Below are positions 2,872 through 56,586 of a DNA stretch of 62,139 bases, in pieces; the first letter of the stretch is position 1, and every line of letters begins with the position of its first letter. The translations under genes were made by a program, and so were the position numbers. Under the pieces are notes generated by a model. The model did not search any database. It had not been told where the DNA came from and was given only the letters and a program-made list of their open reading frames with translations. The stretch is from an uncultured Clostridia bacterium (GTDB lineage: Bacteria > Bacillota > Clostridia > TANB77 > CAG-508): the NCBI GenBank assembly GCA_934155625.1, contig CAKPHD010000003.1:1-62139 (forward strand), written 5' to 3'.

Positions 2872-2946
2872 GGTACGGATGGGACCGGTTCTTAAAAGTA
2901 CACTTTTATGTAAAGTGTACTTTTAAGAACCGGTCCCATCCGTACC
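2872..2946. repeat. REP-like doublet in inverted orientation; forms a 32-bp perfect hairpin followed by a T7 run and acts as the mutS2 terminator
   Basis: GGTACGGATGGGACCGGTTCTTAAAAGTACAC (2872-2903) and its exact reverse complement (2915-2946), with an 11-nt loop, then TTTTTTT. Contains the family core GGGACCGGTTCT / AGAACCGGTCCC. Confidence 0.9.
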
Positions 2947-2968
2947 TTTTTTTGCAAAATATATAAAT

Positions 2969-3523
2969 TTATATTTCCATTTGACTTCCCAAAAAACTTG
3001 CAGCTGACTGAGCAACCTTTTTTTCGACTTCATTCATTTTTGTATTTGATTCTTTAGACAATAAAATTACTGTTCCAATTGTATCCCCATTTGAAATTAT
3101 TGGGTATACTACTTGTGCATTATATTTTCTTTCATTATTATCATTTTTTGTTATAGGAACTGCAACATCACTATTTTCTTTACTTGTATATATTTCTTTA
3201 TCTTCCATTAATTGTTCTAGCTCTTCACTTACATTTTGCTCTAAAAATTCCTTTTTAGGTCCACCAGACATTGCTATTACTGTGTCTTTATCTGTTATGC
3301 ATGCTATGTGTCCAGTTGTTTTTGATAATGTTTCTGCATATCCTGATGCAAATTCTGATAGTTCACCTATTGGTGAATATTTCTTTAATATTACTTGGCC
3401 TTCTCTATCTGTAAATATTTCTAAAGGCTCGCCTTCTTTTATACGCAATGTTTTTCTTATTTCTTTTGGTATTACTACTCTACCTAAATCATCTATTCTT
3501 CTTACAACTCCTGTTGCTTTCAT
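2969..3523 (-). CDS. spoVT: stage V sporulation protein T (AbrB-family transcriptional regulator)
   Basis: 184 aa. N-terminal swapped-hairpin motif GVVRRIDDLGRVVIPKEIRKTLRI followed by a GAF-like C-terminal half. AGGAGG RBS. Confidence 0.88.
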   Translation of the reverse strand: MKATGVVRRIDDLGRVVIPKEIRKTLRIKEGEPLEIFTDREGQVILKKYSPIGELSEFASGYAETLSKTTGHIACITDKDTVIAMSGGPKKEFLEQNVSEELEQLMEDKEIYTSKENSDVAVPITKNDNNERKYNAQVVYPIISNGDTIGTVILLSKESNTKMNEVEKKVAQSAASFLGSQMEI

Positions 3524-3618
3524 AATCTTCCTCCTTTTTGTTTTTTAAGTATATTCTTATTATGACAAAAAAGGAAAAAAATATACATTTGCATTTTAAT
3601 TTTTCAATTTAAAAAAAC

Positions 3619-3647
3619 TTGAATTTAATTTCAAAATATATTATAAT
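3619..3647 (+). promoter_or_regulatory. sigma-A type promoter for ssrA
   Basis: TTGAAT (3619-3624), 17-nt spacer, TATAAT (3642-3647), about 19 nt upstream of the mature tmRNA 5' end. Confidence 0.6.
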
Positions 3648-3665
3648 AATTATTGTATTTTATAT

Positions 3666-4019
3666 GGGGATGTAATGGTTTCGACATTGCATTGGAAACA
3701 CAGATAGCGAGTAGTGGATTCTCGTTTGCCACTTTAAAAAACGAGAAAACTAAATATAAACGCTGATAATACAGAATTAGCATTTGCTGCCTAATTGCAG
3801 CATCGCCTATTAAAATATCCCCACATATTTTAATTTGGTGTCATTTTAGTGGGAAACAAAGCTGTTTTTTCTGCAAAAACAGTGGGTAACTTCGCAGATA
3901 TATCTATCAATCGTTTGTTTATTAATGCTTGTTAGATGAATTTTAATAATAAACTGCACTCGGAGAAGTTTGTGTGGATGGTGTTATGGACAGGGGTTCG
4001 ACTCCCCTCATCTCCACCA
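3666..4019 (+). ncRNA. ssrA: tmRNA (SsrA)
   Basis: 5' GGGGATGTAATGGTTTCGAC pairs with the 3' tRNA-like end GGACAGGGGTTCGACTCCCCTCATCTCCACCA. Internal tag frame GCT GAT AAT ACA GAA TTA GCA TTT GCT GCC TAA (3762-3794) encodes ...ADNTELAFAA, a typical hydrophobic-Ala-Ala degron. Confidence 0.95.
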
Positions 4020-4081
4020 AAAGTTAAAACCATAAAGCGAATGAGATAGAATACTCATTCGCTTTGTAGTAAAATAGATTA

Positions 4082-5123
4082 TTAATTACTTTTTTGAATT
4101 GATGTAACTTTATCATTTTCAAAATAAATATATCGCTCATTACCATAAACCCATTGTTCATATGTACCAGATTTAGTTTCAGTAATATTCTTTTTCTTAG
4201 GACTACCCCAAGCTCCTTTTAAAACCTCTTCTTTTGTCATTCCTATAGATGGTTCCTTAGATTTCTCTTCTTTTTCCTTTTCTGCTGCAGCTAATTCATG
4301 TTCTCTTTTGTCTTCATAATAAATTTTTAAATATTCTTGCATAAATACTAAAAAGTCCTTGTTTTCTTCCATAGTTTTATTAACACTATCTATATCAAGT
4401 AAAACATATTTTTCATTATTGTAATAGTCTCTTGATACATTCTCCCATATACCATTATCACTAGCCGTATCATTTATTCCTCTTTTTCTATAATAATCAT
4501 CATTCTTTCCAAAAAAATAATTTGTTGCATTATGATTTTCTTTATTATTTTTATCAAGCCAAAAATTCATCTCAATTCCAGCATCTTGATAATATTTTAA
4601 ATTAGACAAAATAACTATCTTTCTATGTTTTTGAGGATTGATATTGTTTTCACCAGCACCTACTATCCAAGCTTTTTCTATCGGTTTTTCTAATGAAATA
4701 TAGTTTCCTCCATCAGCCCAATAATACATTAAACCATTCAAAATATCTTTTGAAGTTTGTTCAAGTGAATCATAATTTATTTTGTTATATTCTTCTTGAA
4801 ATTTTTCAAAGAATAAATTATTATGTACTTCTTTTGATGTTGTTTCTTCTGAAATTTTAAAATCATCAGATAAGTTTTTATAATATGTATCTAATGTTCC
4901 TGTTGTTCCTCCGCGAAGAATATAAATATATCATATTATTAGAAATTTTGGAATTCAAACAATCATCTTGCCAAGTTTTTGATATAGATGATATAGAATC
5001 ATTGCTTTGTTCATCATTTTTTATGTTTTTAGAATTGTTTTTATACAATAAACTTGCTATTATTATAATAGTTATTATTGCGATAAAAACAAAAATAGTA
5101 ACTTTTAAAGTTTTCTTGTTCAT
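4082..5123 (-). pseudogene. membrane-anchored/secreted hypothetical protein, apparently split by a frameshift near 4925-4940
   Basis: ORF 4878-5123 encodes only an N-terminal TM anchor (MNKKTLKVTIFVFIAIITIIIIASLLY...). The frame of ORF 4082-4741 is open upstream without an ATG as far as ~4935 (..YIYILRGGTTGTLDTYYKNLSDDFKISEETT..). The two frames meet in the AT run ATATATTTATATT. The C-terminus carries a GMTKEEVLKGAWGSP...YEQWVYGNERYIYFENDKVTSIQ motif common in small Firmicute lipoprotein-like domains. Confidence 0.5.
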
Positions 5124-5138
5124 TTTAAATCTCGCTCC

Positions 5139-5984
5139 TTAAAAAAAGCTGTCCTTACCGAACTTTATAAAAGTATTCGCACTACTTATTGAATTTTTTA
5201 TAGCATTTATTTGTTTATCCCTTTCAATTGAACTTTTTATCCCAAATATCAAAACAATTACTATAACACTTATTAAACCTATCGCAAAAATTCTTGCTAT
5301 TTTTTTATTTTTCTTAACTTTTTCATCATAGTCTTTTTCCATTTTTAAATCAATAGCATCATCTACACCTTCAGAAATTTTATCACTTATTTCTTTATAC
5401 TTTTTAGTTGTTTGTTCATCACCAAATTTTATAATACAATCAAAGTATTGGTTATCTTCTAATTTGCTCTCTAAACTAATACATTTTTCAATCAATTCAT
5501 CATCATTTGAAGCTTTATAATCTATATATAATTTCATTATGTACAACTTTACTTCCTCTTGAGTTAATTCTACAGGTCTTGCTTCAATAATTTGTTCCAT
5601 ATAAAGCTCTGCGCTTAAATAATCTCGATTTTTAATGTAATTTTCGATCTTCTTTATTATTTCATCTTTTGGCGTTGTTGTAAAATAGTTGTTTTTCTTT
5701 TTTTGTTCAATATCTTTTATTACATTTAAATCTTCTTTTGTTATTTTAATTGTATCTCTAGAATTACAATGTGGGCATTTAACATAATCCACAATTTTAC
5801 TTGAAGCATTATTAGCTATTTTATTTTGTTCATATGCATCATACCTTGTTCCTCCAATAGCATTAGCAACTGTACCAATAGCAGCAATTCCAGCCGTTAG
5901 AGCTTCTCTTGTACTAGCCTTTACATCCTCATCTGTATAACACCAAATATGTCCACAAACGTTACACTTTCTCATATATTCCAT
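5139..5984 (-). CDS. hypothetical zinc-ribbon protein with a C-terminal TM helix
   Basis: 281 aa. CNVCGH...CPHCNS (CxxC...CxxC) at the N-terminus, a helical repeat-like middle, and the single TM IARIFAIGLISVIVIVLIFGI near the C-terminus. GGGGGAATAG RBS region. Confidence 0.6.
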   Translation of the reverse strand: MEYMRKCNVCGHIWCYTDEDVKASTREALTAGIAAIGTVANAIGGTRYDAYEQNKIANNASSKIVDYVKCPHCNSRDTIKITKEDLNVIKDIEQKKKNNYFTTTPKDEIIKKIENYIKNRDYLSAELYMEQIIEARPVELTQEEVKLYIMKLYIDYKASNDDELIEKCISLESKLEDNQYFDCIIKFGDEQTTKKYKEISDKISEGVDDAIDLKMEKDYDEKVKKNKKIARIFAIGLISVIVIVLIFGIKSSIERDKQINAIKNSISSANTFIKFGKDSFF

Positions 5985-6014
5985 TTCTATTCCCCCTTAT
6001 TTTCAATAATAGAT

Positions 6015-6476
6015 TTAATATATTACTCCATTTTCCCTTTTATATTCTTCAAAAGCATGTATACATTCATCTCTATCCATTTGCTTTAAATTAATCAAAT
6101 CTTTATTTTCACCCTTTAAATATTGATATATAATGTCATCTCTAAAACCGATACTTCCTGCATCTTCCTTTGTGCAACCATAATATACTGTTTTAATATT
6201 TGCCCAAATTATTGCGGACAAACACATTGGACATGGTTCACATGAAGTGTATAATATATAACCTGATAAATCATAAGTTTTTAGCTTTTCACAAGCTGTT
6301 CTTATTGCAACTACTTCTGCATGAGCTGTCGGATCATTACTACATAATACTCTATTATTTCCTTCTGCTATAATATTACCTTCCTTGTCAGTTATTACTG
6401 CTCCAAAAGGTCCACCTTCTTTGTTTTTGAATCCTTGTATTGATTTGTTTTTGGCTATTTCCATATATTTGTTCAT
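6015..6476 (-). CDS. guaD: guanine deaminase-like CDA-fold zinc deaminase
   Basis: 153 aa. GGPFGAVI, DPTAHAEV (HAE zinc/catalytic motif) and TSCEPCPMCLSAI (PCxxC). Overall very close in pattern to B. subtilis GuaD rather than TadA. Confidence 0.7.
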   Translation of the reverse strand: MNKYMEIAKNKSIQGFKNKEGGPFGAVITDKEGNIIAEGNNRVLCSNDPTAHAEVVAIRTACEKLKTYDLSGYILYTSCEPCPMCLSAIIWANIKTVYYGCTKEDAGSIGFRDDIIYQYLKGENKDLINLKQMDRDECIHAFEEYKRENGVIY

Positions 6477-6505
6477 AATATCGCTATCCTCCTTATTTTC
6501 TAAAA

Positions 6506-6575
6506 GGTACCGTTGGGACCGGTTCTTAAAAGTACCATTTTTTATTGGAACTTTTTGGACCGGTTCTCTGCTGTC
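6506..6575. repeat. REP-like doublet (direct orientation; second unit degenerate)
   Basis: GGTACCGTTGGGACCGGTTCTTAAAAGTACC (6506-6536) and GGAACTTTTTGGACCGGTTCTCTGCTGTC (6547-6575; core TGGACCGGTTCT at 6556-6567). Confidence 0.85.
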
Positions 6576-6621
6576 TCTTTTGACTTATTTTATACTATAT
6601 TATAATAATATTCAAGTATTA

Positions 6622-7932
6622 TTAATATTTATCTCTTACATATAATTGTATTCTTTGTCCTTTTTTTATAACATATGGTTCAGTATATCCTCTTTCATCT
6701 TTTTCCAAAACAATATCATCAACATCCAAAAAATTTTCTGGAACTATTCCAAAAGTTTCCCAAAAATTAATTGCAATAACTTTATTTTCTTGTGTTAAAG
6801 CTGTTATAGAAAACTCATTATTAATTATCTTTTTATATGATTCATTTTTATTATGTAAATAAAAGTCAAAATTGTTCCATTCTTCTATATTTTTCATTGG
6901 AACAATGGTATTATCTAATTTTATTTTATACATATTCTCAATTTCGCACAATCCAAACAATCTATCTATTTTAGTGTCTCTTAAAATTCCATTACTGTAC
7001 ATATCTCCATTATTTAACACAACATATATTTCATCATTCCAACAGCTTTTTTCCAATTGTTTTACATCTTTTATATTAATTCCATCTAATACATTAGTAT
7101 AATCTTTTAAACATCTTAATTTTTGTTTTAAACTAATTTCTTCTATCTCAAGATATTCATCTTCCTCATCACACTTTTTTAAACTTACAAATTTCAAATA
7201 TTTTTTTATGAATAACAACTCTACTATATTTTGATTTTCTTGCATACTTTTTGCCACTATAACTTCTGCAATATCTTTTTTATAACTTTCTGTATTGTAA
7301 TAATCATCTCTATACAATAGCATTATTATATCTGCCTCTTCTACAACAACACTATACAAATCAGTCAGTTTAGGCCTAGCTTCTTCTTTTAGATAAAACC
7401 TTACATCTGGCTTATTTGATAGTTGTGATGTTACTATTATTGGAATTTCTATTTCTTTAGAAAGTGTTTTTAATTTTTTAGTAATTTCTATAATTTTTAG
7501 CTCTTGTATATCATAATTATTATCACTTCTTATTAATTCTAGTGAATCTATTAATATTAATTTTATATTCTTTTCCTTTTTTAAATTTATGCACTCTTCA
7601 CGTATCTTGTTTATTGAAATTGCAGGTGTATCATCTATATATATACCTTTTTCAGAAAAGTCTTCATCTTCAATTGTTTCTGTTATCACTTTGTCAATAT
7701 CTACGTCATTTTTACTACATAATATCCTTTTAATTAAATGTTTTTTTGACATTTCAAGACTAAATATCGCTACTGATAATTTTTGCCTTATTGCTACATT
7801 TGTAGCAATATTTAATGCAAATGCTGTTTTTCCCATTGAAGGTCTTGAAGCTATTACTATTAAATTAGCTTTATTTATTCCTTGAATTGCGTCATCCAAT
7901 TTGTTAAAACCTGTAAAAATATTTGTTTCCAT
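6622..7932 (-). CDS. DnaB C-terminal (RecA-like) ATPase domain protein lacking the DnaB N-terminal domain, fused to an uncharacterised ~220-aa C-terminal region
   Basis: 436 aa. Residues 1-215 align by eye to the DnaB ATPase domain: Walker A ASRPSMGKTAFALN, Walker B LILIDSLELI, IPIIVTSQLS, RPKLTDL....EADIIMLLYRDDYY. The usual LRESGSIEQDAD segment is LYSVVVEEAD, so the Arg/Glu-Ser-Gly residues are lost. The rest (..NDEIYVVLNNGDMYSNG..ENKVIAINFWETFG..) has no motif I recognise. Confidence 0.7.
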   Translation of the reverse strand: METNIFTGFNKLDDAIQGINKANLIVIASRPSMGKTAFALNIATNVAIRQKLSVAIFSLEMSKKHLIKRILCSKNDVDIDKVITETIEDEDFSEKGIYIDDTPAISINKIREECINLKKEKNIKLILIDSLELIRSDNNYDIQELKIIEITKKLKTLSKEIEIPIIVTSQLSNKPDVRFYLKEEARPKLTDLYSVVVEEADIIMLLYRDDYYNTESYKKDIAEVIVAKSMQENQNIVELLFIKKYLKFVSLKKCDEEDEYLEIEEISLKQKLRCLKDYTNVLDGINIKDVKQLEKSCWNDEIYVVLNNGDMYSNGILRDTKIDRLFGLCEIENMYKIKLDNTIVPMKNIEEWNNFDFYLHNKNESYKKIINNEFSITALTQENKVIAINFWETFGIVPENFLDVDDIVLEKDERGYTEPYVIKKGQRIQLYVRDKY

Positions 7933-8024
7933 TGTCTATTCCTCCTAAAATTTTTATAATTATATTTTAATATTGTAATTATAATAATTTTTTTGGCAAT
8001 ATTACTGGTCAATTATTGTCGAAC

Positions 8025-8055
8025 GGGACGGATGGGACCGGTTCTCATCCGTTCC
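8025..8055. repeat. REP-like unit (single)
   Basis: GGGACGGATGGGACCGGTTCTCATCCGTTCC. The arms ACGGATG/CATCCGT are complementary around the invariant core. Confidence 0.85.
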
Positions 8056-8127
8056 ACTTTTTATTTTTGCAGCATATAATATTAAAATATTATGGTATTT
8101 TTACAAATGCCAAGAAATGAGGTTTTT

Positions 8128-9035
8128 ATGGACGATTTTGAATTTAGTTCTAATTTATTATATGAAAATTTACGTATTTTAAAACAATCTTACCCTTTTA
8201 TCCAAACTGGTTCTATTGGCAAAAGCATTATGGGTAAAGATATCCCTTTTATTAGAGTTGGTCGAGGCCAAAAAGAAGTATTTTATTCTGCAAGTTATCA
8301 CGCAAATGAATGGATTACTTCTTTGGTTCTTTTAGAATTTCTATATGATTACTGCAATGCTATCCAAACAAATTCTACTATTTGGAATTTTGATGCTAGA
8401 CGTTTGTTTAATACTGTTTCTATTTATATTGTTCCTCTAGTTAATCCAGACCGGAGTTGATTTAGTTACTGGCGCTCTTCCCACTACATCTCCTTCATAC
8501 AAACAAGCAGAAAAAATTGCTTATGGCTTTGCAACAATTCCTTTTCCTAATGGATGGAAGGCCAATATTCGCGGAGTTGACCTCAATCTTCAGTTTCCTG
8601 CTGGCTGGCAACAAGCTCGAGAAATAAAATACGAGCAAGGCTTCAATCGGTCCTGCCCCTCATGATTTTGTTGGATATGGTCCTCTTACAGAACCAGAAG
8701 CTTTAGCTGTTTATAATTTTACTTTACAACATAATTTTAGACTTATACTTGCTTATCATTCTCAAGGTGAAGTTATCTACTGGCAATTCCAAAATTATAA
8801 CCCTCCTGGTGCTTTTCAAATTGGAACTCAATTTGCTAATGTTAGTGGATATTCTCTTGAACCTACACCCTATAATTCCAGCTTTGCTGGTTACAAAGAT
8901 TGGTTTATTCAAAATTACAATAGACCCGGATATACTATTGAGGTTGGACTTGGTACTAATCCTCTTCCTATGACTCAATTTAAAAAAATCTATGAAGATA
9001 ATTTAGGTATATTGGTTTTAGGAAGTATTCTCTAA
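8128..9035 (+). pseudogene. M14-family gamma-D-glutamyl-(L)-meso-diaminopimelate peptidase / zinc carboxypeptidase, interrupted by two +1 frameshifts
   Basis: Three consecutive frames read through as one M14 peptidase. Frame 1 runs to 8460 (..YHANEW..IVPLVNPD). Frame 2 from 8453 reads GVDLVTGALP...WKANIRGVDLNLQFPAGW..GFN. Frame 3 from ~8649 reads GPAPHDFVGYGPLTEPEALAVYNF...YHSQGEVIYW...GYTIEVG...* with the stop at 9033-9035. Each break is repaired by removing one C immediately 5' of a GG glycine codon (GAC-C-GGA at 8452; AAT-C-GGT at 8648). Likely start is the ATG at 8128 (GAGG RBS). Confidence 0.75.
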
Positions 9036-9040
9036 AATTT

Positions 9041-9071
9041 TGCACCGTTGAGAACCGGTCCCAACGGTGCA
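9041..9071. repeat. REP-like unit (single) between convergent genes; terminator-like
   Basis: TGCACCGTTGAGAACCGGTCCCAACGGTGCA. Perfect 9-10 bp arms around the core, with A/T runs on both sides. Confidence 0.88.
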
Positions 9072-9075
9072 AAAA

Positions 9076-9930
9076 TCAAGAATTATTTTTATTCATAAAT
9101 TTATTGAATTCAGCTCCCAAAAACACAGTATAAAAGCAAGAATAAGTCCACATCATAACAAGCATCAAAGTAGTTAAACTTCCATAGGTAATAGAAAATC
9201 CTTTAAAAATTGTCAAATATCTTGAAAATACAAATGATATTATATTAAGTGAAATAGCTCCAAATAATGCACCATACACTTGGCTTTTAATTGATACCCT
9301 ATGTTTTGGCATAAACTTATATAACAACAAGAATACTACAAATGTTGCAAATATAACCCCTAACTGTGTCATAATTGATGATATTAAGTTATAATTCTCC
9401 AATGCTCCAAAATTCTCTTTAATTATATCTATAGCACCATTTCCAAACACTAATATTGTCAATCCCATCACTATCATTATAATAAACAAAATTGTTTCTA
9501 ATAAAACTTTTACTCTTAAATATATATATGAAGTTATTTTTTTACTTTTAGTCTGGTAAACTGTTTGTAACCCTGCTGTTAATGCGTAAAATCCTTTTCC
9601 AGCTGACCATAATGTGAATATTATGGAAACTGAAATTGTTCCTATAGATTTCGAATATACTTCTTGAACTATTCCTAACACCATTTCGCTCATACTTGAT
9701 GGAATAACTTTTGAAATTGCATCAAATAGTGTTTGTGGCGCTATTCCCGTATATTGAATCAATGTTATCAACAAAATTACAAATGGTATAAATGATAATA
9801 TCGTGTAATATGCACATTGTGCTGCACTTTCGCTTATATGGTCTCTTTTCATATTTTCTGTTAATTCTTGAAATTTTTGATATTTTTCTCTTAATTTGGA
9901 TTTATCCATTTTGTCTTTCATTCCTTTCAC
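9076..9930 (-). CDS. YihY/virulence factor BrkB family membrane protein
   Basis: 284 aa, about 6 TM helices, family-typical AAQCAYYTILSFIPFVILL motif. The start is uncertain: GTG at 9930, ATG at 9921 or ATG at 9909. Confidence 0.75.
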   Translation of the reverse strand: MKGMKDKMDKSKLREKYQKFQELTENMKRDHISESAAQCAYYTILSFIPFVILLITLIQYTGIAPQTLFDAISKVIPSSMSEMVLGIVQEVYSKSIGTISVSIIFTLWSAGKGFYALTAGLQTVYQTKSKKITSYIYLRVKVLLETILFIIMIVMGLTILVFGNGAIDIIKENFGALENYNLISSIMTQLGVIFATFVVFLLLYKFMPKHRVSIKSQVYGALFGAISLNIISFVFSRYLTIFKGFSITYGSLTTLMLVMMWTYSCFYTVFLGAEFNKFMNKNNS

Positions 9931-10013
9931 ACCTTATCAATTATTATTCTATCATATTAACTTTTATATTTCTATATTTCATTAAAAATTACTGAAATTC
10001 TTGAAAAAACATG

Positions 10014-10061
10014 TTGACAAATATTTCCGCTCATGGTATACTAAATAACTAGAATAGTATA
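10014..10061 (+). promoter_or_regulatory. sigma-A promoter with extended -10 plus a candidate TetR operator palindrome
   Basis: TTGACA (10014-10019), 17-nt spacer, TGgTATACT (10034-10042). Palindrome TATACTA-N11-TAGTATA (10037-10061) overlaps the -10 and the TSS region ahead of the TetR gene. Confidence 0.6.
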
Positions 10062-10084
10062 TCAGTATACAGGAGGTGTTAATC

Positions 10085-10651
10085 TTGAAAGAAGAACAAA
10101 TTATAGAAGTTGCTAGAGAGCTATTCCATAAATTCGGATTTAAAAAAGTATCTATGGATGAAATCGCTAGAGAAGCTGGTGTTACCAAAAAAACAATTTA
10201 CCGTTACTTTGATAGTAAAGAAGCTTTACTTGAATACTTTATCCAAGAAGAAATCCAAAATATGAAAGCAATTGTAGAAGAGGTCGAAAGTAAAAATCTA
10301 GACTTTTTTGATACCGTAAATGAAGCAACTTGTAAATTATTAAAATACAGAAAAGAAAAAGACTTTTTAAATATAATTTCCAAAGAAGCTGAATGGTTAA
10401 AAAACCCAATTATTATAAAAAATCTAACATTGATTGACACACAAATTCAAAATTACATCAAAAGTAAACTACAAAAAGCAAAAGAAAAAGGGTTTATCGA
10501 ATTCACTGACTTAGATGTCACATCATTTTTAGTTTATAAAATGTATATGGCTCTAATTCTTGAGTGGACTGATAAAGATAAAACAATGGATGAACAAATG
10601 ATAGCAAATAGTATATCAGAAATTATAAAAAAAGGATTAAGAAAGGAATGA
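10085..10651 (+). CDS. TetR/AcrR family transcriptional regulator
   Basis: N-terminal HTH ARELFHKFGFKKVSMDEIAREAGVTKKTIYRYFDSKEALL. Probable TTG start at 10085, 8 nt after AGGAGG; the track ORF begins at an in-frame GTG at 10076. Confidence 0.85.
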   Translation: MKEEQIIEVARELFHKFGFKKVSMDEIAREAGVTKKTIYRYFDSKEALLEYFIQEEIQNMKAIVEEVESKNLDFFDTVNEATCKLLKYRKEKDFLNIISKEAEWLKNPIIIKNLTLIDTQIQNYIKSKLQKAKEKGFIEFTDLDVTSFLVYKMYMALILEWTDKDKTMDEQMIANSISEIIKKGLRKE

Positions 10652-10658
10652 TTTTATT

Positions 10659-12737: not shown

Positions 12738-12827
12738 TATATAAAAGACAAAAAAATCACAAAAGTCAAACGACTTTCGTGATTTTTTTCGCATTTTTCA
12801 AATGACTTTTGTGCAAAGCCTCACATT

Positions 12828-15425: not shown

Positions 15426-15443
15426 AATACCTACCTCCTTTTT

Positions 15444-15510
15444 GGTACTTTTGGGACCGGTTCTTATCGGTGCATTTTTGGTACTTTTGGGACCGGTTCT
15501 TATCGGTGCA
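15444..15510. repeat. REP-like doublet (two identical direct units, 36-bp period) inside the clpB 5' leader
   Basis: GGTACTTTTGGGACCGGTTCTTATCGGTGCA at 15444-15474 and again at 15480-15510. Confidence 0.9.
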
Positions 15511-15586
15511 TTTATCTTATAGTTTTAGACCAGAAACTTGATGTCCCGGCCTTTTTACTTTTATTATATATCTTTTGACATTTATT

Positions 15587-15629
15587 ATTATATCACTTTG
15601 TTTTAGCAGAGTCAATAGTAGAGTGCTAA
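15587..15629 (-). promoter_or_regulatory. clpB sigma-A promoter overlapped by a CIRCE-like (HrcA operator-like) element
   Basis: Minus strand: TTAGCACTC-TACTATTGA-CTCTGCTAA (15629-15603), compared with the CIRCE consensus TTAGCACTC-N9-GAGTGCTAA. -35 TTGACT (15615-15610), 17-nt spacer, -10 TATAAT (15592-15587). Confidence 0.55.
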
Positions 15630-15676
15630 TTTATATCAAAAAAAATCCTAGGATTTTATAACCCTAAGATTTGATA

Positions 15677-15762
15677 TGGTGGACAGGGAAGGATTCGAAC
15701 CTTCGTACTCGTATGAGAACAGATTTACAGTCTGCCGCCTTTAGCCACTCGGCCACCTGTCC
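15677..15762 (-). tRNA. tRNA-Tyr (anticodon GTA), CCA encoded
   Basis: Reverse complement GGACAGGTGGCCGAGTGGCTAAAGGCGGCAGACTGTAAATCTGTTCTCATACGAGTACGAAGGTTCGAATCCTTCCCTGTCCACCA. Long variable arm, anticodon loop CTGTAAA. Confidence 0.92.
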
Positions 15763-17360: not shown

Positions 17361-17371
17361 TTTTATATATA

Positions 17372-28419: not shown

Positions 28420-28494
28420 GGTACTTTTGGGACCGGTTCTCAACGGTGCATTTTTATGTTAAGTGTACCGTTGAGAACCGGTCCCATCCGTCAC
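28420..28494. repeat. REP-like doublet in inverted orientation (long hairpin) between convergent/tandem genes
   Basis: GGTACTTTTGGGACCGGTTCTCAACGGTGCA (28420-28450) and GTACCGTTGAGAACCGGTCCCATCCGTCAC (28465-28494). Core plus inner arm give a stem of about 20 bp. Ends 3 nt from the ytvI-like stop codon. Confidence 0.9.
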
Positions 28495-33680: not shown

Positions 33681-33748
33681 TGCACCGTTGGGACCGGTTC
33701 TCTGACGTACCTTTTTTGGTACCGTTGGGACCGGTTCTTATCGGTGCA
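33681..33748. repeat. REP-like doublet (direct, 36-bp period) after guaA
   Basis: TGCACCGTTGGGACCGGTTCTCTGACGTACC and GGTACCGTTGGGACCGGTTCTTATCGGTGCA. Confidence 0.9.
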
Positions 33749-34521: not shown

Positions 34522-34582
34522 TCCTTTCTTTTAAAATTCATAATACATTATATGTTTTAATCTAATTTATGTGCGCAAAAAT

Positions 34583-34648
34583 GCACCGCAAAGAACCGGT
34601 CCCAAACGTACCAAAAATGCACCGCAAAGAACCGGTCCCAAACGTACC
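34583..34648. repeat. REP-like doublet (two identical direct units, 36-bp period, opposite orientation to 33681-33748)
   Basis: GCACCGCAAAGAACCGGTCCCAAACGTACC at 34583-34612 and again at 34619-34648. Confidence 0.9.
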
Positions 34649-39607: not shown

Positions 39608-39678
39608 TGCACCGATGGGACCGGTTCTTATCGGTGCAATTTTTCTCTGCACCGATGAGAACCGGTCCCATCGGTGCA
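39608..39678. repeat. REP-like doublet (cores in inverted orientation, identical palindromic arms) between tig and clpP
   Basis: TGCACCGATGGGACCGGTTCTTATCGGTGCA (39608-39638) and TGCACCGATGAGAACCGGTCCCATCGGTGCA (39648-39678). Confidence 0.9.
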
Positions 39679-43723: not shown

Positions 43724-43908
43724 TGAATGCCTTAAAATATAATCTTTAAATGTAATGACGAATGTGATTGAAGAAACTTTAGAAATTCTATGCAATTTTA
43801 TGGAAAGAGTTCGCGATAGTGGAAGGGTGCCATAAAATAAATTAGAAGTTCTTAAGTTTCGTAATGAGCCGAGGAATGTAATGCAAAGATTATATTTCAA
43901 GGCATTCT
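43724..43908 (-). repeat. long-hairpin structured repeat element, copy 2 (between truB and metG)
   Basis: Outer arms GAATGCCTTAAAATATAATCTTT.. / ..AAAGATTATATTTCAAGGCATTC. Inner helices are 43783-43800/43843-43860 and TTTTATGG/CCATAAAA. The conserved internal-loop strings ACGAATGTGA and GTAATGAGCCGAG are shared with copy 1. Confidence 0.8.
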
Positions 43909-43914
43909 TTTAAT

Positions 43915-45724: not shown

Positions 45725-46098
45725 TATTTATTATTTCCTCCGTTATCTTTGTTTTTCATTATATCATTTAATATGCTATCTATTCTAGCTCCATACTCTA
45801 AAGATTCATCTAATTCAAACACTAACTCTGGAGTATTTCTTAAATTAATTCTTTTAGCCAATTCTGAACGTAAATATCCAGAAGATTTTTTCAATCCTGC
45901 TAAAGTTTCTTTTACATTTTTCGAGTTCAAAATGCTAACAGATACTTTTGCATATTTTAAGTCCGGCGTAACTTTAACTTTAGTAACACTAATCATTCCT
46001 GTTACACTAGGTTCTTTTAAATCATAACTAATTATTTGACTAAGTTCTTTTCTAAATTCTTCATCAATTCTTCCTTGACGGTTATTGTTTTTAGGCAT
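45724..46098 (-). CDS. rbfA: ribosome-binding factor A
   Basis: 124 aa. R...E.....IS..L.D......ISVT.V.V..DL..A.V pattern. Operon position after infB. Confidence 0.9.
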   Translation of the reverse strand: MPKNNNRQGRIDEEFRKELSQIISYDLKEPSVTGMISVTKVKVTPDLKYAKVSVSILNSKNVKETLAGLKKSSGYLRSELAKRINLRNTPELVFELDESLEYGARIDSILNDIMKNKDNGGNNK

Positions 46099-46115
46099 TT
46101 TTCTCTACCTCCTGT

Positions 46116-51158: not shown

Positions 51159-52676
51159 TTAAAAAATTGAAACTCTAAAACCAATACCAACATGATAACC
51201 AGTTGTAGCACTAATAGTACGATAGTTTACTGGATAACTATTACCCTTATGATTGTAACCACCACCTCGATAAGCACAAGGTGAATTTAAATCAGAAGTA
51301 TTTTCCAGCGTCCACTCCCATACATTTCCATCGAAATCATATATTCCTTGTTTACAAAATATATCACTTGCTCCTGTTGATAATAATATATTTGAATCTG
51401 AAGTTTTTGTCCCATAAGCTTCACTTATCCATTCATAGCCATTTGCTGTATATTTAGACTCGATATTTGTTATATTCCACAAATTATTATAACAATTTCC
51501 CCAATTCGTGCTATCATTTTTCAAATCTGTTTGAGATGTTCCTTTTGTCTCTAAATATTTTAATACTAAATCCCATTGTACTCCAAACATTAAACTACTT
51601 GTATAATTTCCTGATTCCATATTACTTGCTAATGTTTGCGCTTGGCTACATGTTATCCAATTATATGGATAAGCGTTTTGTTTTATTACTGGTGTTTCTG
51701 TTGGAGCTTTTAATGGCGAGCCGGTTGTTCTTGGTTTATTCTCTATTCCAGTTTCATATTTTCCAATATAAAAACCACCATTTTGATATACACTTTTTAA
51801 CATTTTTTGTTTTAATGCTGTATATTGTTCGCTTGTTAATCCTGTTGCTTCATCTGAATGGTATTCGTCTTTGTATTTTGTTCCATTTCTATAGTCATTT
51901 GTATATGTGTGTAAATCTGCCTCTATTGCTATATATTCCTCTTCTGTAAATTCTGTTATTCCTAATCCTGCTGTGATATATACTTTTTTGGTCATAGGTA
52001 CTTCTACCCATACATATTGATTTCCTGTACTATCTTGAATTGTTAATCCATTTGCTAATGTTGTTCCTTCTACATTTGTAAATCCATCTGGCAAGTATGG
52101 ATTTGTAACTCTACTTGATACTGTTGTTGAACCTCCGTTTATTTCTTCTCCTGGTTGCTTTGGCTCTGCTGTTATGCTTACTCCAATGTTTGATTTTAAA
52201 TCTTCTTTTGTTTCGTCTATTGGTGTTTTTAATAATTTTATTGTAACTGTTAAGAACGTTTCTTCACCAGCTTTTAATGTTGTTTTATCTAATTTACTTA
52301 TTACCTCAAAATAATCACTATTTGAACTTGTAGCTTCTGCTGTTAAGTCTGATGACAAATCTTGGCTTTGATTTTTTATTGTATATGTTGCAGTTGCAGT
52401 GTCTCCTTTTGCACTTAAGCCTGAAACTTCTATTGTTCCTTCTGTTTTTTTACTTTCATTTATTGTCGCTGTTGTTGTTCCTTTTCCTCCTGTTGTTGGT
52501 GTTCCTATAAATTCTACTACAAAATTGGATTGACTTGCTTCTGATTTTGCTGTTCCATTTATATTTAGCGTTACATTTGTTATTGCTGCATATCCTACTG
52601 CTACTAGTATTATCGCTAGTAGTACTATTCCTCCAACTATCTTATTATTGGCTCTTCTCATTTTTGCTCTTTTCAT
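51159..52676 (-). CDS. membrane-anchored surface protein with a C-terminal FGE-sulfatase (SUMF1-like) domain, paralogue 1
   Basis: 505 aa. N-terminal basic stretch plus TM (MKRAKMRRANNKIVGGIVLLAIILVAVGYAAI), a Thr/Ser-rich beta-sandwich-like ~170 aa, then GGFYIGKYETG, MFGVQWDLVLKYLE, GNVWEWTLE, RGGGY......GIGFRVSIF, typical of the FGE-sulfatase family. Confidence 0.7.
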   Translation of the reverse strand: MKRAKMRRANNKIVGGIVLLAIILVAVGYAAITNVTLNINGTAKSEASQSNFVVEFIGTPTTGGKGTTTATINESKKTEGTIEVSGLSAKGDTATATYTIKNQSQDLSSDLTAEATSSNSDYFEVISKLDKTTLKAGEETFLTVTIKLLKTPIDETKEDLKSNIGVSITAEPKQPGEEINGGSTTVSSRVTNPYLPDGFTNVEGTTLANGLTIQDSTGNQYVWVEVPMTKKVYITAGLGITEFTEEEYIAIEADLHTYTNDYRNGTKYKDEYHSDEATGLTSEQYTALKQKMLKSVYQNGGFYIGKYETGIENKPRTTGSPLKAPTETPVIKQNAYPYNWITCSQAQTLASNMESGNYTSSLMFGVQWDLVLKYLETKGTSQTDLKNDSTNWGNCYNNLWNITNIESKYTANGYEWISEAYGTKTSDSNILLSTGASDIFCKQGIYDFDGNVWEWTLENTSDLNSPCAYRGGGYNHKGNSYPVNYRTISATTGYHVGIGFRVSIF

Positions 52677-52752: not shown

Positions 52753-54294
52753 CTAATAAATTGAAACTCTAAAGCCCATATAAGCATTATAACCTTCTGG
52801 GCTGTTGTAATTACGGAAATTGGCTGGATATGTTTTTCCAAAATAATTATATGAACCTCCTCGTTTACTTGCCGGGCTATTTGTATTGGCTGTATACTCA
52901 AGTGTCCACTCCCATACATTTCCAGCCAAATCATATATTCCTTGCTCGCGAAAGTCTTCACTTGCTCCTGTTGACAATATAATTGATTGTTCTGAAGCCT
53001 TTTGTCCATATGCTTCATTTATCCAATTTCCTAATTTATAACTATCATCATCAAATGTAGCATATTTTGATTTTGCATTTGTTATGTTCCATAAATTATT
53101 TTTATAATTTCCAATTTTTGTACTATCAGAACATAAATCTGATTGTGCTATTCCTTTAGTTTCTAAATATTTTAATACTAAATCCCATTGTACTCCAAAC
53201 ATTAGACTACTTGTATATTTCCCAGATTCCATATTACTTGCTAATGTTTGCGCTTGGCTACATGTTATATTAATATATGGATATACATTTTTCTTTATTA
53301 CTGGCGTTTCTGTAGGTTCTATATCTGATGAACTAGAAGTTTTTGGTGTTCCTTCTATTCCGGTTTCATATTTTCCTACATAAAAACCTCCATTTTGATA
53401 TATACTTTTTAGCATTTTTTGTTTTAATGCTATGTATTGTTCCCTTGTTAATCCTGTTGTTGCATCAGAATAATATTCATCTTTATAACTTGTCCCATTT
53501 CTGTAGTCATCTGTATATGTGTGCAAATCTGTTTCTATTTTTGTGTATTGGGCTTCTGTAAATTCTGCTATATTTAGTCCTGCTGTTGGATATACTTCAG
53601 CTGTTTTAGGTACTTCTACCCATACATATTGATTCCCTGTTGAGTCTTCTATTGTTAATCCATTGTCTAAATTTGTTCCGTTTATTTGTTTAAATCCTTT
53701 TGGCAAGTATGTTCCTGCAGTTGTTTTATTACTTGATACTATTGTTGAGCCTCCATTTAGTTCATCTCCTGGTTGCTTTGGTTCTGCTGTTATACTTACA
53801 CCTATATTTGATTTTAAATCTTCTTTTGTTTCATCTATTGGTGTTTTTAATAATTTTATTGTAACTGTTAAGGACGTTTCTTCCCCAGTTTTTAATGTTG
53901 TTTTATCTAATTTACTTATTACCTCGAAATAATCGCTATTTGAGCTTGTCGCTTCTGCTGTTAAGTCTGCAGATAAATCTTGGCTGTTATTTTTTACTGT
54001 ATATGTTGCTGTTGCTGTATCTCCTTTGGCTGTTAGTCCTGCTACTTCTATTGTTCCTTCTGTTTTCTTATTTTCATTTATTGTTGCTGTTGTTGTTCCT
54101 TTTCCACTTGTTGTTGGTGTTCCTGTAAATTCTACTACAAAATTAGCTTGACTTGCTTCTGATTTTGCTGTTCCGCTTATATTTAATGTTACATTTGTTA
54201 TTGCTGCATATCCTACTGCCACCAGTATTATGGCTAGTAGCATGATTCCTCCAACTACCTTGTTATTTGCTCTTCTCATTTTTGCTCTTCTCAT
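52753..54294 (-). CDS. membrane-anchored surface protein with a C-terminal FGE-sulfatase (SUMF1-like) domain, paralogue 2
   Basis: About 513 aa from the ATG at 54294 (MRRAKMRRANNKVVGG..). It has the same GAAGGGAGA RBS as paralogue 1. The first ~190 aa are nearly identical to paralogue 1. C-terminal GNVWEWTLE, KRGGSY, YMGFRVSIY. Confidence 0.7.
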   Translation of the reverse strand: MRRAKMRRANNKVVGGIMLLAIILVAVGYAAITNVTLNISGTAKSEASQANFVVEFTGTPTTSGKGTTTATINENKKTEGTIEVAGLTAKGDTATATYTVKNNSQDLSADLTAEATSSNSDYFEVISKLDKTTLKTGEETSLTVTIKLLKTPIDETKEDLKSNIGVSITAEPKQPGDELNGGSTIVSSNKTTAGTYLPKGFKQINGTNLDNGLTIEDSTGNQYVWVEVPKTAEVYPTAGLNIAEFTEAQYTKIETDLHTYTDDYRNGTSYKDEYYSDATTGLTREQYIALKQKMLKSIYQNGGFYVGKYETGIEGTPKTSSSSDIEPTETPVIKKNVYPYINITCSQAQTLASNMESGKYTSSLMFGVQWDLVLKYLETKGIAQSDLCSDSTKIGNYKNNLWNITNAKSKYATFDDDSYKLGNWINEAYGQKASEQSIILSTGASEDFREQGIYDLAGNVWEWTLEYTANTNSPASKRGGSYNYFGKTYPANFRNYNSPEGYNAYMGFRVSIY

Positions 54295-54309
54295 GTTTGG
54301 TCTCCCTTC

Positions 54310-54529
54310 AATTCTTTCTTCAAGTTGCATACTTAAAGATATAACAATTCAAATTAATTATAGCAATAAACCCCTATTTTATCAACCGTTTTTCGACAAT
54401 TATAATAAAATAATTTTAATTAATTAAATTAGTATTTTTCACCAGGTCTAACTAACTTCTATATATTGGTATTACTAGTTTAAAAGAATTTTCACATTTT
54501 CTTTAAGTATGCAACTTAAAGAAAAATTT
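54310..54529. promoter_or_regulatory. candidate invertible promoter (inverton): inverted repeats flanking a 160-bp segment that carries a consensus promoter, currently pointing at the FGE-sulfatase paralogues
   Basis: Perfect 18-bp IR: AAGTTGCATACTTAAAGA (54322-54339) and TCTTTAAGTATGCAACTT (54500-54517), extendable outward to 29 bp with 3 mismatches (54310-54338 / 54501-54529). Inside, on the minus strand: TTGATA (54385-54380), 17-nt spacer, TATAAT (54362-54357). Confidence 0.55.
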
Positions 54530-54658
54530 TAATCAAAATTTAAATTTTTTCTTAAAAATCGACACGAAAAAATCCACACAAATATGTAATATATCCCTCA
54601 CTTTAGAATACACATTTTAATAAAGTACAATACAAGTAAGAAAGGATGATATTTATAT

Positions 54659-55654
54659 ATGAAAACTTATAAATTAGCAATTGTTGGAGCAACTGGGCTA
54701 GTAGGCAGAACAGCCCTAAAGATTCTAGAAGAAAAAAACTTACCTAATTTCGAATATACATTATTTAGTTCAAACAAATCAGCTGGAACCACATTAAATT
54801 TTTTTAATAAAGATTATATAGTTCAAGAATTAAAAGAAGATTCTTTCGATATCGGATTTGATTTTGCAATATTTTCTGCAGGTGGCAAAACTTCTGAGCA
54901 TTTTGCCCCAATTGCTGCTTCCAAAGGATGCATCGTAATTGATAATAGCAGTACATTCAGAATGGATGATGATGTACCTTTAATTGTTCCAGAAGTAAAT
55001 TTTCAAGATATTATTACGCATCATAATATAATTGCCAACCCTAATTGTTCTACAATTCAAGCTGTTGTTGCATTAAAACCTTTAGATGATAACTTTAAAA
55101 TAAAGCGAATTGTATATTCTACATATCAGGCCGTCTCTGGTGCTGGTAAACTAGGGTTAGAAGATTTAGAAAATGGCAGAAAAAATCTTGATAAACCTTT
55201 AATAAAATTTCCACACCCTATTTATGATAATTGTCTTCCACATATTGATGTTTTTTTACTTAATAGATATACCAAGGAAGAAATGAAAATGATAAACGAA
55301 ACTCGTAAAATTTTAGGTCATCCTAATTTACCAATTACAGCAACAACGGTAAGAGTTCCTGTTAGTAACTGTCATGGAGAAAGCATAAACATTGAATTCG
55401 AAAAAGATTTTTCTATTGAAGAGGCCATCTCTGTTTTAAAGAATTTTCCTGGTATTATTGTCGAAGATAACCCTAATACCAACTTATATCCACTAGCCTC
55501 AACTGCAAAAGGACATGACGAAGTTTTTGTTGGCAGAATTAGAAAAGATTTTAGTGTAAAAAGTGGACTTAATATGTGGGTTGTAGCTGATAATCTAAGA
55601 AAAGGTGCAGCTAGTAATGCAATTCAAATTATGGAAAGGATGATTCAAGAATGA
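54659..55654 (+). CDS. asd: aspartate-semialdehyde dehydrogenase
   Basis: 331 aa. VGATGLVGR, catalytic-Cys context IANPNCSTIQ. Confidence 0.94.
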   Translation: MKTYKLAIVGATGLVGRTALKILEEKNLPNFEYTLFSSNKSAGTTLNFFNKDYIVQELKEDSFDIGFDFAIFSAGGKTSEHFAPIAASKGCIVIDNSSTFRMDDDVPLIVPEVNFQDIITHHNIIANPNCSTIQAVVALKPLDDNFKIKRIVYSTYQAVSGAGKLGLEDLENGRKNLDKPLIKFPHPIYDNCLPHIDVFLLNRYTKEEMKMINETRKILGHPNLPITATTVRVPVSNCHGESINIEFEKDFSIEEAISVLKNFPGIIVEDNPNTNLYPLASTAKGHDEVFVGRIRKDFSVKSGLNMWVVADNLRKGAASNAIQIMERMIQE

Positions 55655-56529
55655 AAAAATGTCTATTTACTGGAGTTGCAACAGCTCTTGCTACTCCTTT
55701 TAACTCAAATGGCGTTAATACCGAAGAATTCAAAAAATTCATACAATTTCAAATATCATCTGGAGTTGACGCACTCGTTGTATGTGGCACTACAGGCGAA
55801 TCCAGCACCATGACCAAACAAGAAAGAATTGATGCTATAACCTGTGCAATCGAAACAGTTAATTCTAGTGAAAGCAAAATTCCTGTAATTGTAGGTACTG
55901 GTTCAAACAATACAGCTTATGCTATAGAAATGTCTATACTAGCAGAAAAACTTGGAGCTGATGGCTTATTAGTTGTCACACCATATTACAATAAAACTAC
56001 TCAATCAGGTCTTATAGCTCATTTTCGAACAATTGCCGAATCTGTTTCTATTCCGATTATTTTATATAATGTACCTAGTAGAACTGGTATGAACATTGAA
56101 CCATCAACTTGTTTTGAATTATCTAAAATCAACAATATTGTGGGAATAAAAGAAGCTAGTGGCAATATATCCCAAGTTGCAAAAATCGCATCATTATGTG
56201 GTGATGACTTTGCAATATATTCAGGCAATGATGACCAAATCTGTCCTATTCTTTCACTTGGTGGAAAAGGTGTAATTTCAGTTTTATCTAATGTTGCCCC
56301 AAAACTTACTCGTAGCATCACCAATTCTTTTTTTAAGAAGGCTCCTGATGAAGCATGTTATTATCAATTGCAAGCATTACCTTTAATTGAAGAATTGTTT
56401 GCAGAAACTAATCCAATTCCTATAAAACATGCTATAAATTCACTTGGTTTTGATTTTGGAATTCCTAGACTCCCTTTAATTGAATGTTCTAGCATTTTAA
56501 AAGTCAAACTTGCAAAAAGGAACTTTTAA
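55651..56529 (+). CDS. dapA: 4-hydroxy-tetrahydrodipicolinate synthase
   Basis: 292 aa. VCGTTGES, Schiff-base Lys context GIKEASG. ATGA overlap with asd. Confidence 0.94.
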   Translation: MKKCLFTGVATALATPFNSNGVNTEEFKKFIQFQISSGVDALVVCGTTGESSTMTKQERIDAITCAIETVNSSESKIPVIVGTGSNNTAYAIEMSILAEKLGADGLLVVTPYYNKTTQSGLIAHFRTIAESVSIPIILYNVPSRTGMNIEPSTCFELSKINNIVGIKEASGNISQVAKIASLCGDDFAIYSGNDDQICPILSLGGKGVISVLSNVAPKLTRSITNSFFKKAPDEACYYQLQALPLIEELFAETNPIPIKHAINSLGFDFGIPRLPLIECSSILKVKLAKRNF

Positions 56530-56586
56530 GAACCGGTCCCAACGGTACCAAAAAAGGGACGGATGAGAACCGGTCCCAAATGTCCC
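56519..56586. repeat. REP-like doublet between convergent genes, overlapping both stop codons
   Basis: GGAACTTTTAAGAACCGGTCCCAACGGTACC (56519-56549) contains the last codons and the TAA of dapA. GGGACGGATGAGAACCGGTCCCAAATGTCCC (56556-56586) abuts the stop of the minus-strand gene. Confidence 0.88.

Follow-up and report, generated by a model that had tools for sequence, protein, structure and literature searches.

What are the short, GC-rich palindromes that recur between the genes of a low-GC Clostridia genome, and to which molecular system do they belong? The window analysed here, the whole 62,139-nt stretch of contig CAKPHD010000003.1 from an uncultured Clostridia bacterium, carries 18 such units, each built around a shared 12-nt core, GGGACCGGTTCT. 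The units are probably copies of a repetitive extragenic palindrome (REP)-type element that belongs to a RAYT-like tyrosine transposase of the Y1/HUH kind, encoded elsewhere in the chromosome.

Read on either strand, the core occurs 17 times exactly and once with a single mismatch (TGGACCGGTTCT at 6556-6567), at ten intergenic loci. The mean count in 100 dinucleotide-preserving shuffles was 0.01, and none of the 100 reached 18. A relaxed search of the window found no core with two mismatches, and cores with three mismatches (nine, vs 6.5 expected by chance) are near the chance level. Therefore, the sequence-only reading of this DNA, which had also counted 17 exact copies and one degenerate copy, missed none, and decayed copies are almost nil. 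The loci, orientations and spacings that it gave were all correct on recheck. Three loci are inverted doublets (2872, 28420 and 39608), five are direct doublets (6506, 15444, 33681, 34583 and 56519), and two are single units (8025 and 9041); start-to-start spacing within doublets is 36-45 nt. The core is 67% GC (8/12) and 2-kb windows measure 26-34% GC, in line with the contrast first drawn with surroundings of about 30% GC. Unit density is about one per 3.5 kb. No orientation bias of the KOPS- or Chi-like kind was found along the window (10 cores on the plus strand and 8 on the minus strand).

All 18 window units are intergenic, outside credible genes. Open reading frame (ORF) and Pfam checks agree with the earlier statement that only the last codons of dapA are touched: unit 56519-56549 overlaps the final 11 nt of this DHDPS-family ORF (PF00701). 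An ORF at 28411-29010 on the plus strand spans 28420-28494; with no match in Pfam and an AI-2E transporter gene on the opposite strand, it is treated as spurious. Positions 39608-39612 contact only an over-extended GTG start.

The family extends well beyond the window. One genome per species was scanned for direct doublets, and the scan returned almost solely metagenome-assembled genomes (MAGs) of uncultured gut Clostridia with 26-33% GC. Sources include Hadza and Nepal samples, rabbit, the UMGS and UBA collections, and a complete 1.55-Mb chromosome, OV788638.1. The window is 86-96% identical to parts of four of these genomes, which are therefore sister species of the window organism. In the 740 kb of clade DNA, 321 cores are exact, 41 carry a single mismatch and 33 carry two; 26 of the 41 single mismatches fall at core position 1, the sole position of the core that commonly varies. 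Although ORFs cover 85.5% of this DNA, 77% of the cores lie outside them, and on a 20.8-kb contig with called genes around a RAYT-like gene (L330) all 13 units are intergenic. The 12-mer is thus not frequent in coding sequence, and its reading as a dispersed family stands. Direct arrays reach seven units in related genomes; this sample of arrays is biased because loci were gathered with a direct-doublet pattern. The core was found neither in the literature nor in Rfam, in keeping with the sequence-only reading, which did not recognise it as a described family: the window loci gave no Rfam match at gathering scores or in permissive mode, and literature searches for the 12-mer and its 10-mer returned unrelated primers and similar sequences only.

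Some matches outside the clade were set aside. A genome scan with ACNNNNGGGACCGGTTCT was too loose; among the matches listed, most were single chance occurrences in high-GC genomes. High-GC genomes (a Phycisphaerae MAG, Actinomycetota and others) also show apparent doublets of the 12-mer, but these are plain tandem repeats whose flanks are unrelated, and they were not counted. The Phycisphaerae MAG, JBFWWY (a 59% GC planctomycete), has 33-39-nt tandem repeats containing GGGGACCGGTTCTCAACCGGTC on three contigs (L158, L159 and L186), and the occurrence of the 12-mer there is treated as coincidence.

The link to an enzyme comes from the related genomes. One RAYT-like Y1/HUH gene was found in each of OV788638.1, CAKPDZ, CAKPLQ, CAKOYU and CANRQH, and the ∼262-aa ORF is present in the three unit-richest related loci. 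Its protein matches Pfam Y1_Tnp (IS200-like) with E values of 1e-8 to 2e-9 (36-38 bits, cutoff 23), and its sole NCBIfam match is REP_Tyr_transpos (E ∼1e-15). The HUH (NHVH) and YxHxNP motifs are invariant in 47 homologues. An AlphaFold model (pLDDT 85.6) has as its top Foldseek match 4ER8, the structure of E. coli RAYT in complex with a REP hairpin (E 3.8e-7, target TM 0.74, rmsd 2.4 Å), and IS608 and ISDra2 TnpA are the next structural matches. A PDB sequence search with a 3-sequence profile gave no match, such that the relationship is visible by fold comparison alone. At 262 aa, compared with 165 aa for E. coli RayT, the protein has a separate helical C-terminal domain in the model (residues ∼195-260), with a faint HTH_23 match (E 0.099) and no match to Pfam DnaA_C.

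This gene appears to keep a fixed chromosomal context. It lies between yunB and nuoE/nuoF/hydA in OV788638, CAKPDZ, CAKPLQ and metagenome contigs. One variant of the protein occurs on 23 contigs, and four of the four places displayed have the yunB-hydrogenase context. Among the matches listed, one RAYT locus per genome was found, in MAGs that are incomplete. In OV788638.1 the gene is at ∼109.5 kb and the counterparts of the window are at ∼1.46-1.54 Mb; therefore, the absence of a RAYT gene from the window, correctly noted at the outset, is expected. The three relatives that bracket the window organism carry the gene, suggesting that its own copy lies elsewhere in its chromosome. The CAKOYU gene (L303:2501-3287) equals the CAKPDZ gene to about residue 130 and then runs out of frame.

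Units surround the RAYT-like gene in all five of these clade genomes. Two to three plus-strand units lie 40-200 nt upstream of the gene, and one to three minus-strand units lie downstream. The flanked loci are as follows.

OV788638: loci L129 and L219
CAKPDZ: loci L125 and L299
CAKPLQ: locus L300
CAKOYU: locus L303
CANRQH: locus L198

Inverted units that bracket the RAYT gene are the arrangement known as a REPtron or TIRtron, and the proposal to look for a Y1 transposase gene flanked by these units was thus borne out. Moreover, the flanking arms share the "dialect" of the units dispersed in the same genome: TGTTCATTT/TAAATGAACA in OV788638, TGCGCATTT/GTTTTGCTCA in CAKPDZ and CAKOYU, and TGCACCGTT/AACGGTGCA in CAKPLQ and the window.

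Similar arrangements are found around distant homologues. At least 438 loci carry a homologue; eighty of the more distant ones were gathered, and flanks were compared for the 42 closest. In most of these 42, inverted repeats built to the same plan lie on both sides of the gene, as in ATGTCC-ATT-GGGGACGGTTCT-TTTT-GGACAT, and more than 25 distant homologues are bracketed by inverted units of the type TGTCC-ATT-GGGGACG[G/T]TTCT-TTTT-GGACA. The variant cores include GGGGACGGTTCT, GGGGACGTTTCT, GGGACGGTCC, GGGACAGTCCCC and others; the GGGACCGGTTCT core is confined to the clade of the window. The centre between half-sites ranges from 0 to 2 nt among lineages. At many distant loci, extra copies of the unit occupy other intergenic sites within a few kb.

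What would the enzyme have to recognise? An alignment of 319 units from the window and related genomes, anchored on the core, defines the unit as a 31-nt imperfect palindrome, TGnnC-N4-GGGACCGGTTCT-N5-GnnCA. The 319 units comprise 199 distinct 31-mers around a near-constant core, and position-wise composition places the invariant part at the centre of the unit, not at its ends. In the register that sets position i opposite position 32-i, 74% of cells pair among 150 distinct units, compared with 66.8% after shuffling, and slid registers pair in just 34-54% of cells. Similarly, the arms covary: 216 cells changed on both sides, compared with 122 ± 12 in shuffled data, and none of 500 shuffles reached as high a count. 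The outer five to seven arm positions pair strongly. The two core-adjacent positions often place T opposite T; therefore, many units are imperfect hairpins.

The core, GGGAC-CG-GTTCT, is self-palindromic only with G.T pairs and therefore folds well on the G-rich strand only. On the GGGACC strand, direct doublets fold with energies of -44.9 and -28.4 kcal/mol, compared with -9.8 and -19.0 kcal/mol on the opposite strand. Inverted doublets form hairpins of ∼20-37 bp (-65.4, -66.0 and -40.9 kcal/mol, with z scores of -14.6, -14.6 and -7.6). Stable hairpins were found at seven of the ten window loci on the strand folded, and the complementary arms that had been pointed out at 9041, 39608 and 8025 are supported by both sequence and folding.

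Two further features concern the arms and arrays of related genomes. Single-arm tandem duplications lie beside complete units in L129 (4597-4640) and L146 (3642-3690 and 5732-5770), for example ggaccattt x4 and gttacattt x3, and resemble products of slippage or of abortive copying at array edges. In CAKPDZ and CAKOYU, arrays terminate in a conserved degenerate third unit, CAAGA[A/C]TGGTACTTTTTTGCGCA, as in L189 (2855-2990), L175 (6510-6650) and L299 upstream of the RAYT gene. The repeated entity in these two genomes therefore looks like a composite of ∼90-100 nt, consisting of two direct units and the third. Composite copies at separate sites are 88-95% identical over 80-100 nt in CAKPDZ and CAKOYU.

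Comparison of orthologous sites shows how units differ between sister species. At the eight window loci with an orthologous counterpart, relatives also carry units, with different arms and often a different number or orientation. Site 39608, for instance, holds an inverted doublet in the window and direct doublets with other arms in CAKPDZ and OV788638, between flanks that are 92-98% identical. Of 125 orthologous pairs of sites compared, number and orientation both agree in 58, one or the other differs in 54, and in 13 the partner lacks an exact core. The arms are ∼60% identical at sites whose flanks reach 75-95% identity, and tandem copy number varies between genomes with 96% identical flanks. 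A CAKOYU doublet (L122) is absent from the corresponding 17-nt spacer at window positions 46098-46116, although the flanks are 97% identical. Thus the loci are not simply conserved between relatives, a prospect raised together with the original family proposal: units differ in arms, number and orientation from one relative to the next, and a few sites have none. The outer edges of arrays, and filled as against empty sites, were inspected for a target-site duplication or motif, and A/T richness alone was found. L331 seems to have one unit more than L330, but the difference is a point mutation in the core and not an insertion.

One orthologous site differs by more than units. At the CAKOYU counterpart of window 2872-2946 (L153:1190-2550), a 1.3-kb segment with a gene for a 332-aa DHH-family phosphoesterase lies between two inverted arrays. 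The window and three other relatives lack the segment, and in them the two arrays lie directly side by side. It was considered as a possible transposase insertion and rejected, as it encodes the phosphoesterase. Clusters of units may be hot spots for gene gain or loss.

Taken together, these observations favour a REP-type family that may be mobilised by the RAYT-like enzyme, by analogy with characterised systems. In the manner of E. coli TnpA(REP) and IS608 TnpA, the enzyme would act on single-stranded DNA, reading the G-rich strand in its folded form. It would then cut and rejoin DNA such that units are copied, replaced or deleted, preferentially beside existing units, and action beside existing units would generate direct arrays and re-use the same sites. 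If intact-core copies alone were propagated, 11 of the 12 core positions would become fixed while arms drift or are exchanged. Binding and cleavage of the unit by the enzyme, and mobility of the unit, would fit the precise changes in presence, copy number and orientation at orthologous sites.

Several observations weigh against assigning the units to such an enzyme. The REP_Tyr_transpos score of the protein, 55-61 bits, is under the model cutoff of 80, and a phmmer search of 2,097 clade ORFs with E. coli RayT gave a best E value of 0.11, a match that gained meaning only through the later Pfam scan. No RAYT gene is present in the window itself, and single-copy status in the complete chromosome OV788638.1 is based on one locus among the matches listed. 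The CAKOYU gene reads as frameshifted, either as a pseudogene or through a MAG assembly error, yet this genome is full of units. Most CAKPDZ and CAKOYU units fold poorly, with a T-rich loop inside the hairpin. The ends of the 319 units, TGnnC and GnnCA, lack a GTAG or CGTC tag, and five of the eight window doublets are direct rather than in the inverted REPIN form. The RAYT proteins of L301 (CALXJU) and L302 (CALXXZ) are 95% identical and share the same context, but their cores differ (GGGGACGGTTCTC vs TGGGACAGTCCCC) by changes that convert G.T wobbles to G-C pairs; therefore, enzyme sequence does not rigidly dictate the core. Finally, no transposition event was caught, and presence/absence and turnover could be explained by recombination or gene conversion.

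A first alternative takes the units as duplex DNA sites, with the near-palindromic core as an operator for a dimeric protein, for example the C-terminal helix-turn-helix (HTH) part of the RAYT-like protein or a nucleoid protein, with a role in chromosome organisation or 3'-end regulation and spread by recombination. An invariant core with variable flanks is a binding-site signature, and the many poor-hairpin units of some genomes agree with it, as do the extra C-terminal helical domain and its faint HTH_23 match; proteins of subclass 2.1 have been described with HTH or DnaA-C-like domains (PMC6006769). The two half-sites, however, differ only by changes that yield G.T wobbles on one strand, and the G-C pairs in L302 likewise point to intrastrand pairing. 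The 0-2-nt variation at the centre is hard to fit with a rigid dimer. The outer arms covary, and the catalytic HUH and Tyr motifs are strictly conserved. As the sole explanation, duplex sites are unlikely, and such a role is compatible with a REP-type family served by the RAYT-like enzyme.

The position of units relative to genes bears on a possible side effect of the family and on a second alternative. The individual window units and their neighbours are as follows.

2872..2902, plus strand: unit GGTACGGAT-GGGACCGGTTCT-TAAAAGTACA, left half of an inverted doublet; 35-bp hairpin, -65.4 kcal/mol; doublet between convergent mutS2-like (452-2869, plus) and spoVT (2969-3523, minus)
2916..2946, minus strand: unit, right half of the inverted doublet, then seven consecutive T
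6506..6536, plus strand: unit, first of a direct doublet, between a deaminase gene (6015-6476, minus) and a dnaB-like gene (6622-7932, minus)
6547..6577, plus strand: degenerate unit with core TGGACCGGTTCT
8025..8055, plus strand: single unit between divergent genes; perfect 13-bp stem with a CCGGT loop, then a T-run; -21.6 kcal/mol; terminator-like
9041..9071, minus strand: single unit TGCACCGTT-core-CAACGGTGCA; perfect stem, -24.2 kcal/mol; lies 5 nt past the stop codon of a BrkB-family gene (9076-9930, minus)
15444..15474, plus strand: unit, first of a direct doublet with period 36, between an 865-aa gene (start 15425, minus) and tRNA-Tyr
15480..15510, plus strand: unit, second of the direct doublet; 31-mer identical to 15444..15474
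28420..28450, plus strand: unit, left half of an inverted doublet; -40.9 kcal/mol; doublet downstream of the AI-2E transporter gene (28497-29585, minus)
28464..28494, minus strand: unit, right half of the inverted doublet
33681..33711, plus strand: unit, first of a direct doublet between convergent genes; A-run upstream; -44.9 kcal/mol on this strand
33718..33748, plus strand: unit, second of the direct doublet; T-run downstream
34582..34612, minus strand: unit, member of a direct doublet between tandem minus-strand genes
34618..34648, minus strand: unit, other copy of the direct doublet; 31-mer identical to 34582..34612
39608..39638, plus strand: unit TGCACCGAT-core-TATCGGTGCA, left half of an inverted doublet; -66.0 kcal/mol
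39648..39678, minus strand: unit, right half of the inverted doublet
56519..56549, minus strand: unit, member of a direct doublet with convergent neighbouring genes; runs into the final 11 nt of dapA (DHDPS)
56556..56586, minus strand: unit GGGACATTT-core-CATCCGTCCC, other copy of the direct doublet

By gene arrangement, four loci are convergent, five same-strand and one divergent. Nine of the ten are downstream of at least one gene end, and units occupy four of the eight convergent intergenic regions in the window. A-runs and T-runs lie beside many units, with T-runs of at least five after 2946, 8055, 33748 and 56586. Because most units are at gene 3' ends and flanked by A/T runs, a plausible secondary consequence of the REP-type family would be that units end transcription or stabilise 3' ends, for one strand or for both. 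Their anatomy is compatible with the terminator role first given to the inverted doublets. A simple terminator rule applied to window positions 1-20000 flagged a full hairpin at 8025 only; at 15444 and 15480 it flagged short sub-hairpins only.

It is quite improbable that the units are nothing other than intrinsic terminators, maintained by common descent and selection next to an incidental transposase gene. The positions past gene ends, the A/T runs, the strong hairpins and the sharing of most sites by several species all agree with that idea. On the other hand, ordinary terminators account poorly for more than 300 sites with one 12-mer but differing stems, for tandem arrays of up to seven units, for precise gain or loss of units between 97% identical flanks, and for orientation flips at one site. 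Similarly, each genome examined has its RAYT gene between inverted arrays, variant cores bracket the distant homologues, and in the first 20 kb a single locus conforms to the simple rule.

Could the core be a DNA uptake sequence, a 12-mer species tag for a competence receptor that accumulated by biased uptake and recombination? Like the DNA uptake sequence (DUS) of Neisseria and the uptake signal sequence (USS) of Pasteurellaceae such as Haemophilus, it is an invariant, over-represented 11-12-mer (10-12-mer in those systems) found in both orientations with variable AT-rich flanks, with frequent inverted pairs at gene ends and core dialects in close lineages. USS and DUS are common inside genes, whereas this motif is nearly absent from coding sequence, as with the 18 of 18 intergenic units in the window. 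Unlike DUS and USS, the present units are palindromic, with covarying arms, form head-to-tail arrays, and bracket a Y1 transposase gene throughout the protein family. Moreover, sequence-specific DNA uptake is not known in Bacillota. These differences make an uptake signal very improbable.

It is hardly credible that the units are miniature inverted-repeat transposable elements (MITEs) of a conventional DDE insertion sequence with TG...CA ends. In favour of this idea, their TG..C and G..CA ends resemble many transposon termini and their presence is polymorphic. Against it, a unit is only 31 nt long, filled and empty sites differ by no target-site duplication or motif, and the Y1 enzyme, rather than any DDE transposase, is the only recurrent neighbour.

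The window contains several other features of note. A second dispersed repeat of ∼165-190 nt occurs at 29619-29808 and 43735-43910; the two copies are 86-87% identical to each other, partly self-complementary, and located in the 5' leaders of the minus-strand AI-2E transporter gene and of a 518-aa ORF (42061-43617). At least nine more copies are present in the related-genome loci. This repeat has no credible Rfam match and could be a MITE or a leader RNA of no named family. Adjacent paralogues at 51159-52676 (505 aa) and 52753-54330 (525 aa) share long stretches of 76-91% DNA identity and are a recent tandem duplication. A tmRNA gene at 3666-4019 encodes the tag peptide ADNTELAFAA, and tRNA-Tyr and tRNA-Met genes lie at 15677-15869, with the direct doublet 15444-15510 just downstream of the pair. 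Between the single units 8025 and 9041 lies an ORF at 8092-8460 (122 aa; region extending to ∼9035) that matches only positions 1-100 of 286 in Peptidase_M14; it probably represents a carboxypeptidase gene that is truncated or frameshifted.

How does this REP-type family compare with known systems? In the IS200/IS605 group, IS608 and ISDra2 TnpA share with the present enzyme the Y1/HUH fold and the HUH and Tyr motifs, and their action on imperfect hairpins of one strand is the model borrowed here for strand specificity and for insertion beside an existing copy. They differ in being multi-copy autonomous insertion sequences with their own ends, whereas here multiplication affects the short repeats and not the gene, which is apparently single-copy and syntenic.

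The sequence-only reading had likened the units to REP elements and bacterial interspersed mosaic elements (BIMEs) with a core that it did not recognise as a described family. The REP-type character and the novelty of the core both stand, but the closest kind is the TIRtron/TIRYT and not the GTAG-tagged REP/BIME of E. coli. As in the REP/BIME and REPIN-RAYT systems of Gammaproteobacteria, the units are short extragenic imperfect palindromes in hundreds of copies, mostly past gene ends, and occur singly, in doublets or in clusters. A single RAYT gene that does not duplicate appears to keep a fixed chromosomal place with inverted repeats around it, the repeat sequence is lineage-specific, and the top structural match of the enzyme is 4ER8. 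In contrast to those systems, there is no GTAG/CGTC tag at the foot of the hairpin, and the apex is invariant while the stem varies. Direct head-to-tail arrays are common here, whereas the classical form is alternating or inverted doublets. The enzyme is under the NCBIfam RAYT cutoff and has an extra C-terminal domain, and the host is a low-GC Bacillota lineage. REP and REPIN-RAYT systems have been worked out almost wholly in Gammaproteobacteria, and the present case is a clear one in Bacillota.

The family fits best with the TIRtron/TIRYT kind (RAYT Group 1, or subclass 2.1), as judged by features of gene and repeat. TIRYT genes are flanked by inverted repeats that share GGGGWSAS, with moderately abundant dispersed families in a few non-Firmicutes species (Di Nocera et al. 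2013, PMC3733652). TnpA(REP) subclass 2.1 has been equated with TIRYTs, and no REP-like sequences were reported near subclass 2.1 genes (Quentin et al. 2018, PMC6006769). RAYT Group 1 is present in Clostridia, and its flanking 16-mers are rare, at ∼12 per replicon (Bertels et al. 2017, PMC5581495). Published surveys disagree on whether this largest RAYT group has a repeat population. The present case pairs an apparently single, syntenic RAYT-like gene per genome with a unit roughly every 3.5 kb, at a genome size of ∼1.5 Mb. It also offers an informative comparison set, with sister species that share sites but differ in arms and distant homologues with graded core variants. The bases read by the enzyme, the strand used and the turnover rate of the repeat population are now tractable. 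In addition, the units can usefully serve to mark this uncultured gut lineage and are a likely cause of assembly breaks in its MAGs, and they should be masked in intergenic motif or terminator prediction.

A bolder proposal, which we regard as rather doubtful, is that an HTH-bearing Group 1/TIRYT RAYT, of a class earlier credited with few or no dispersed repeats, is active in these small-genome gut Clostridia and continually rewrites a genome-wide set of 3'-end hairpins at fixed intergenic sites, such that sister species (∼92% DNA identity) share sites and an 11-nt core but differ entirely in arm dialects, numbers and orientations. On this proposal, a wobble-palindromic core would give structure on one DNA strand only, providing a built-in choice of strand and making even direct repeats usable as hairpins.

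The resemblance to TIRYTs is found in both gene and repeats. The RAYT-like Y1 protein is longer than classical RAYTs, with a helical C-terminal extension that may be HTH-like, and its gene is flanked at short, similar distances by inverted repeats that open with a G-run motif. In both, flanking repeats are also dispersed as single, dimeric or clustered copies, in a few species in the published cases, and Group 1 is reported in Clostridia. At distant homologues, GGGGACGG or GGGGACGT fits GGGGWSAS at seven of eight positions, and GGGGACAG at L235 fits at all eight; the core of the window clade, GGGACCGG..., departs from this consensus. Published cases come from Proteobacteria, Acidobacteria and similar groups, with no Firmicutes family described, and those families are moderately abundant, in contrast to the unit density of the window. 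The present family would extend the TIRYT kind to Bacillota, at a much higher density and with a new core.

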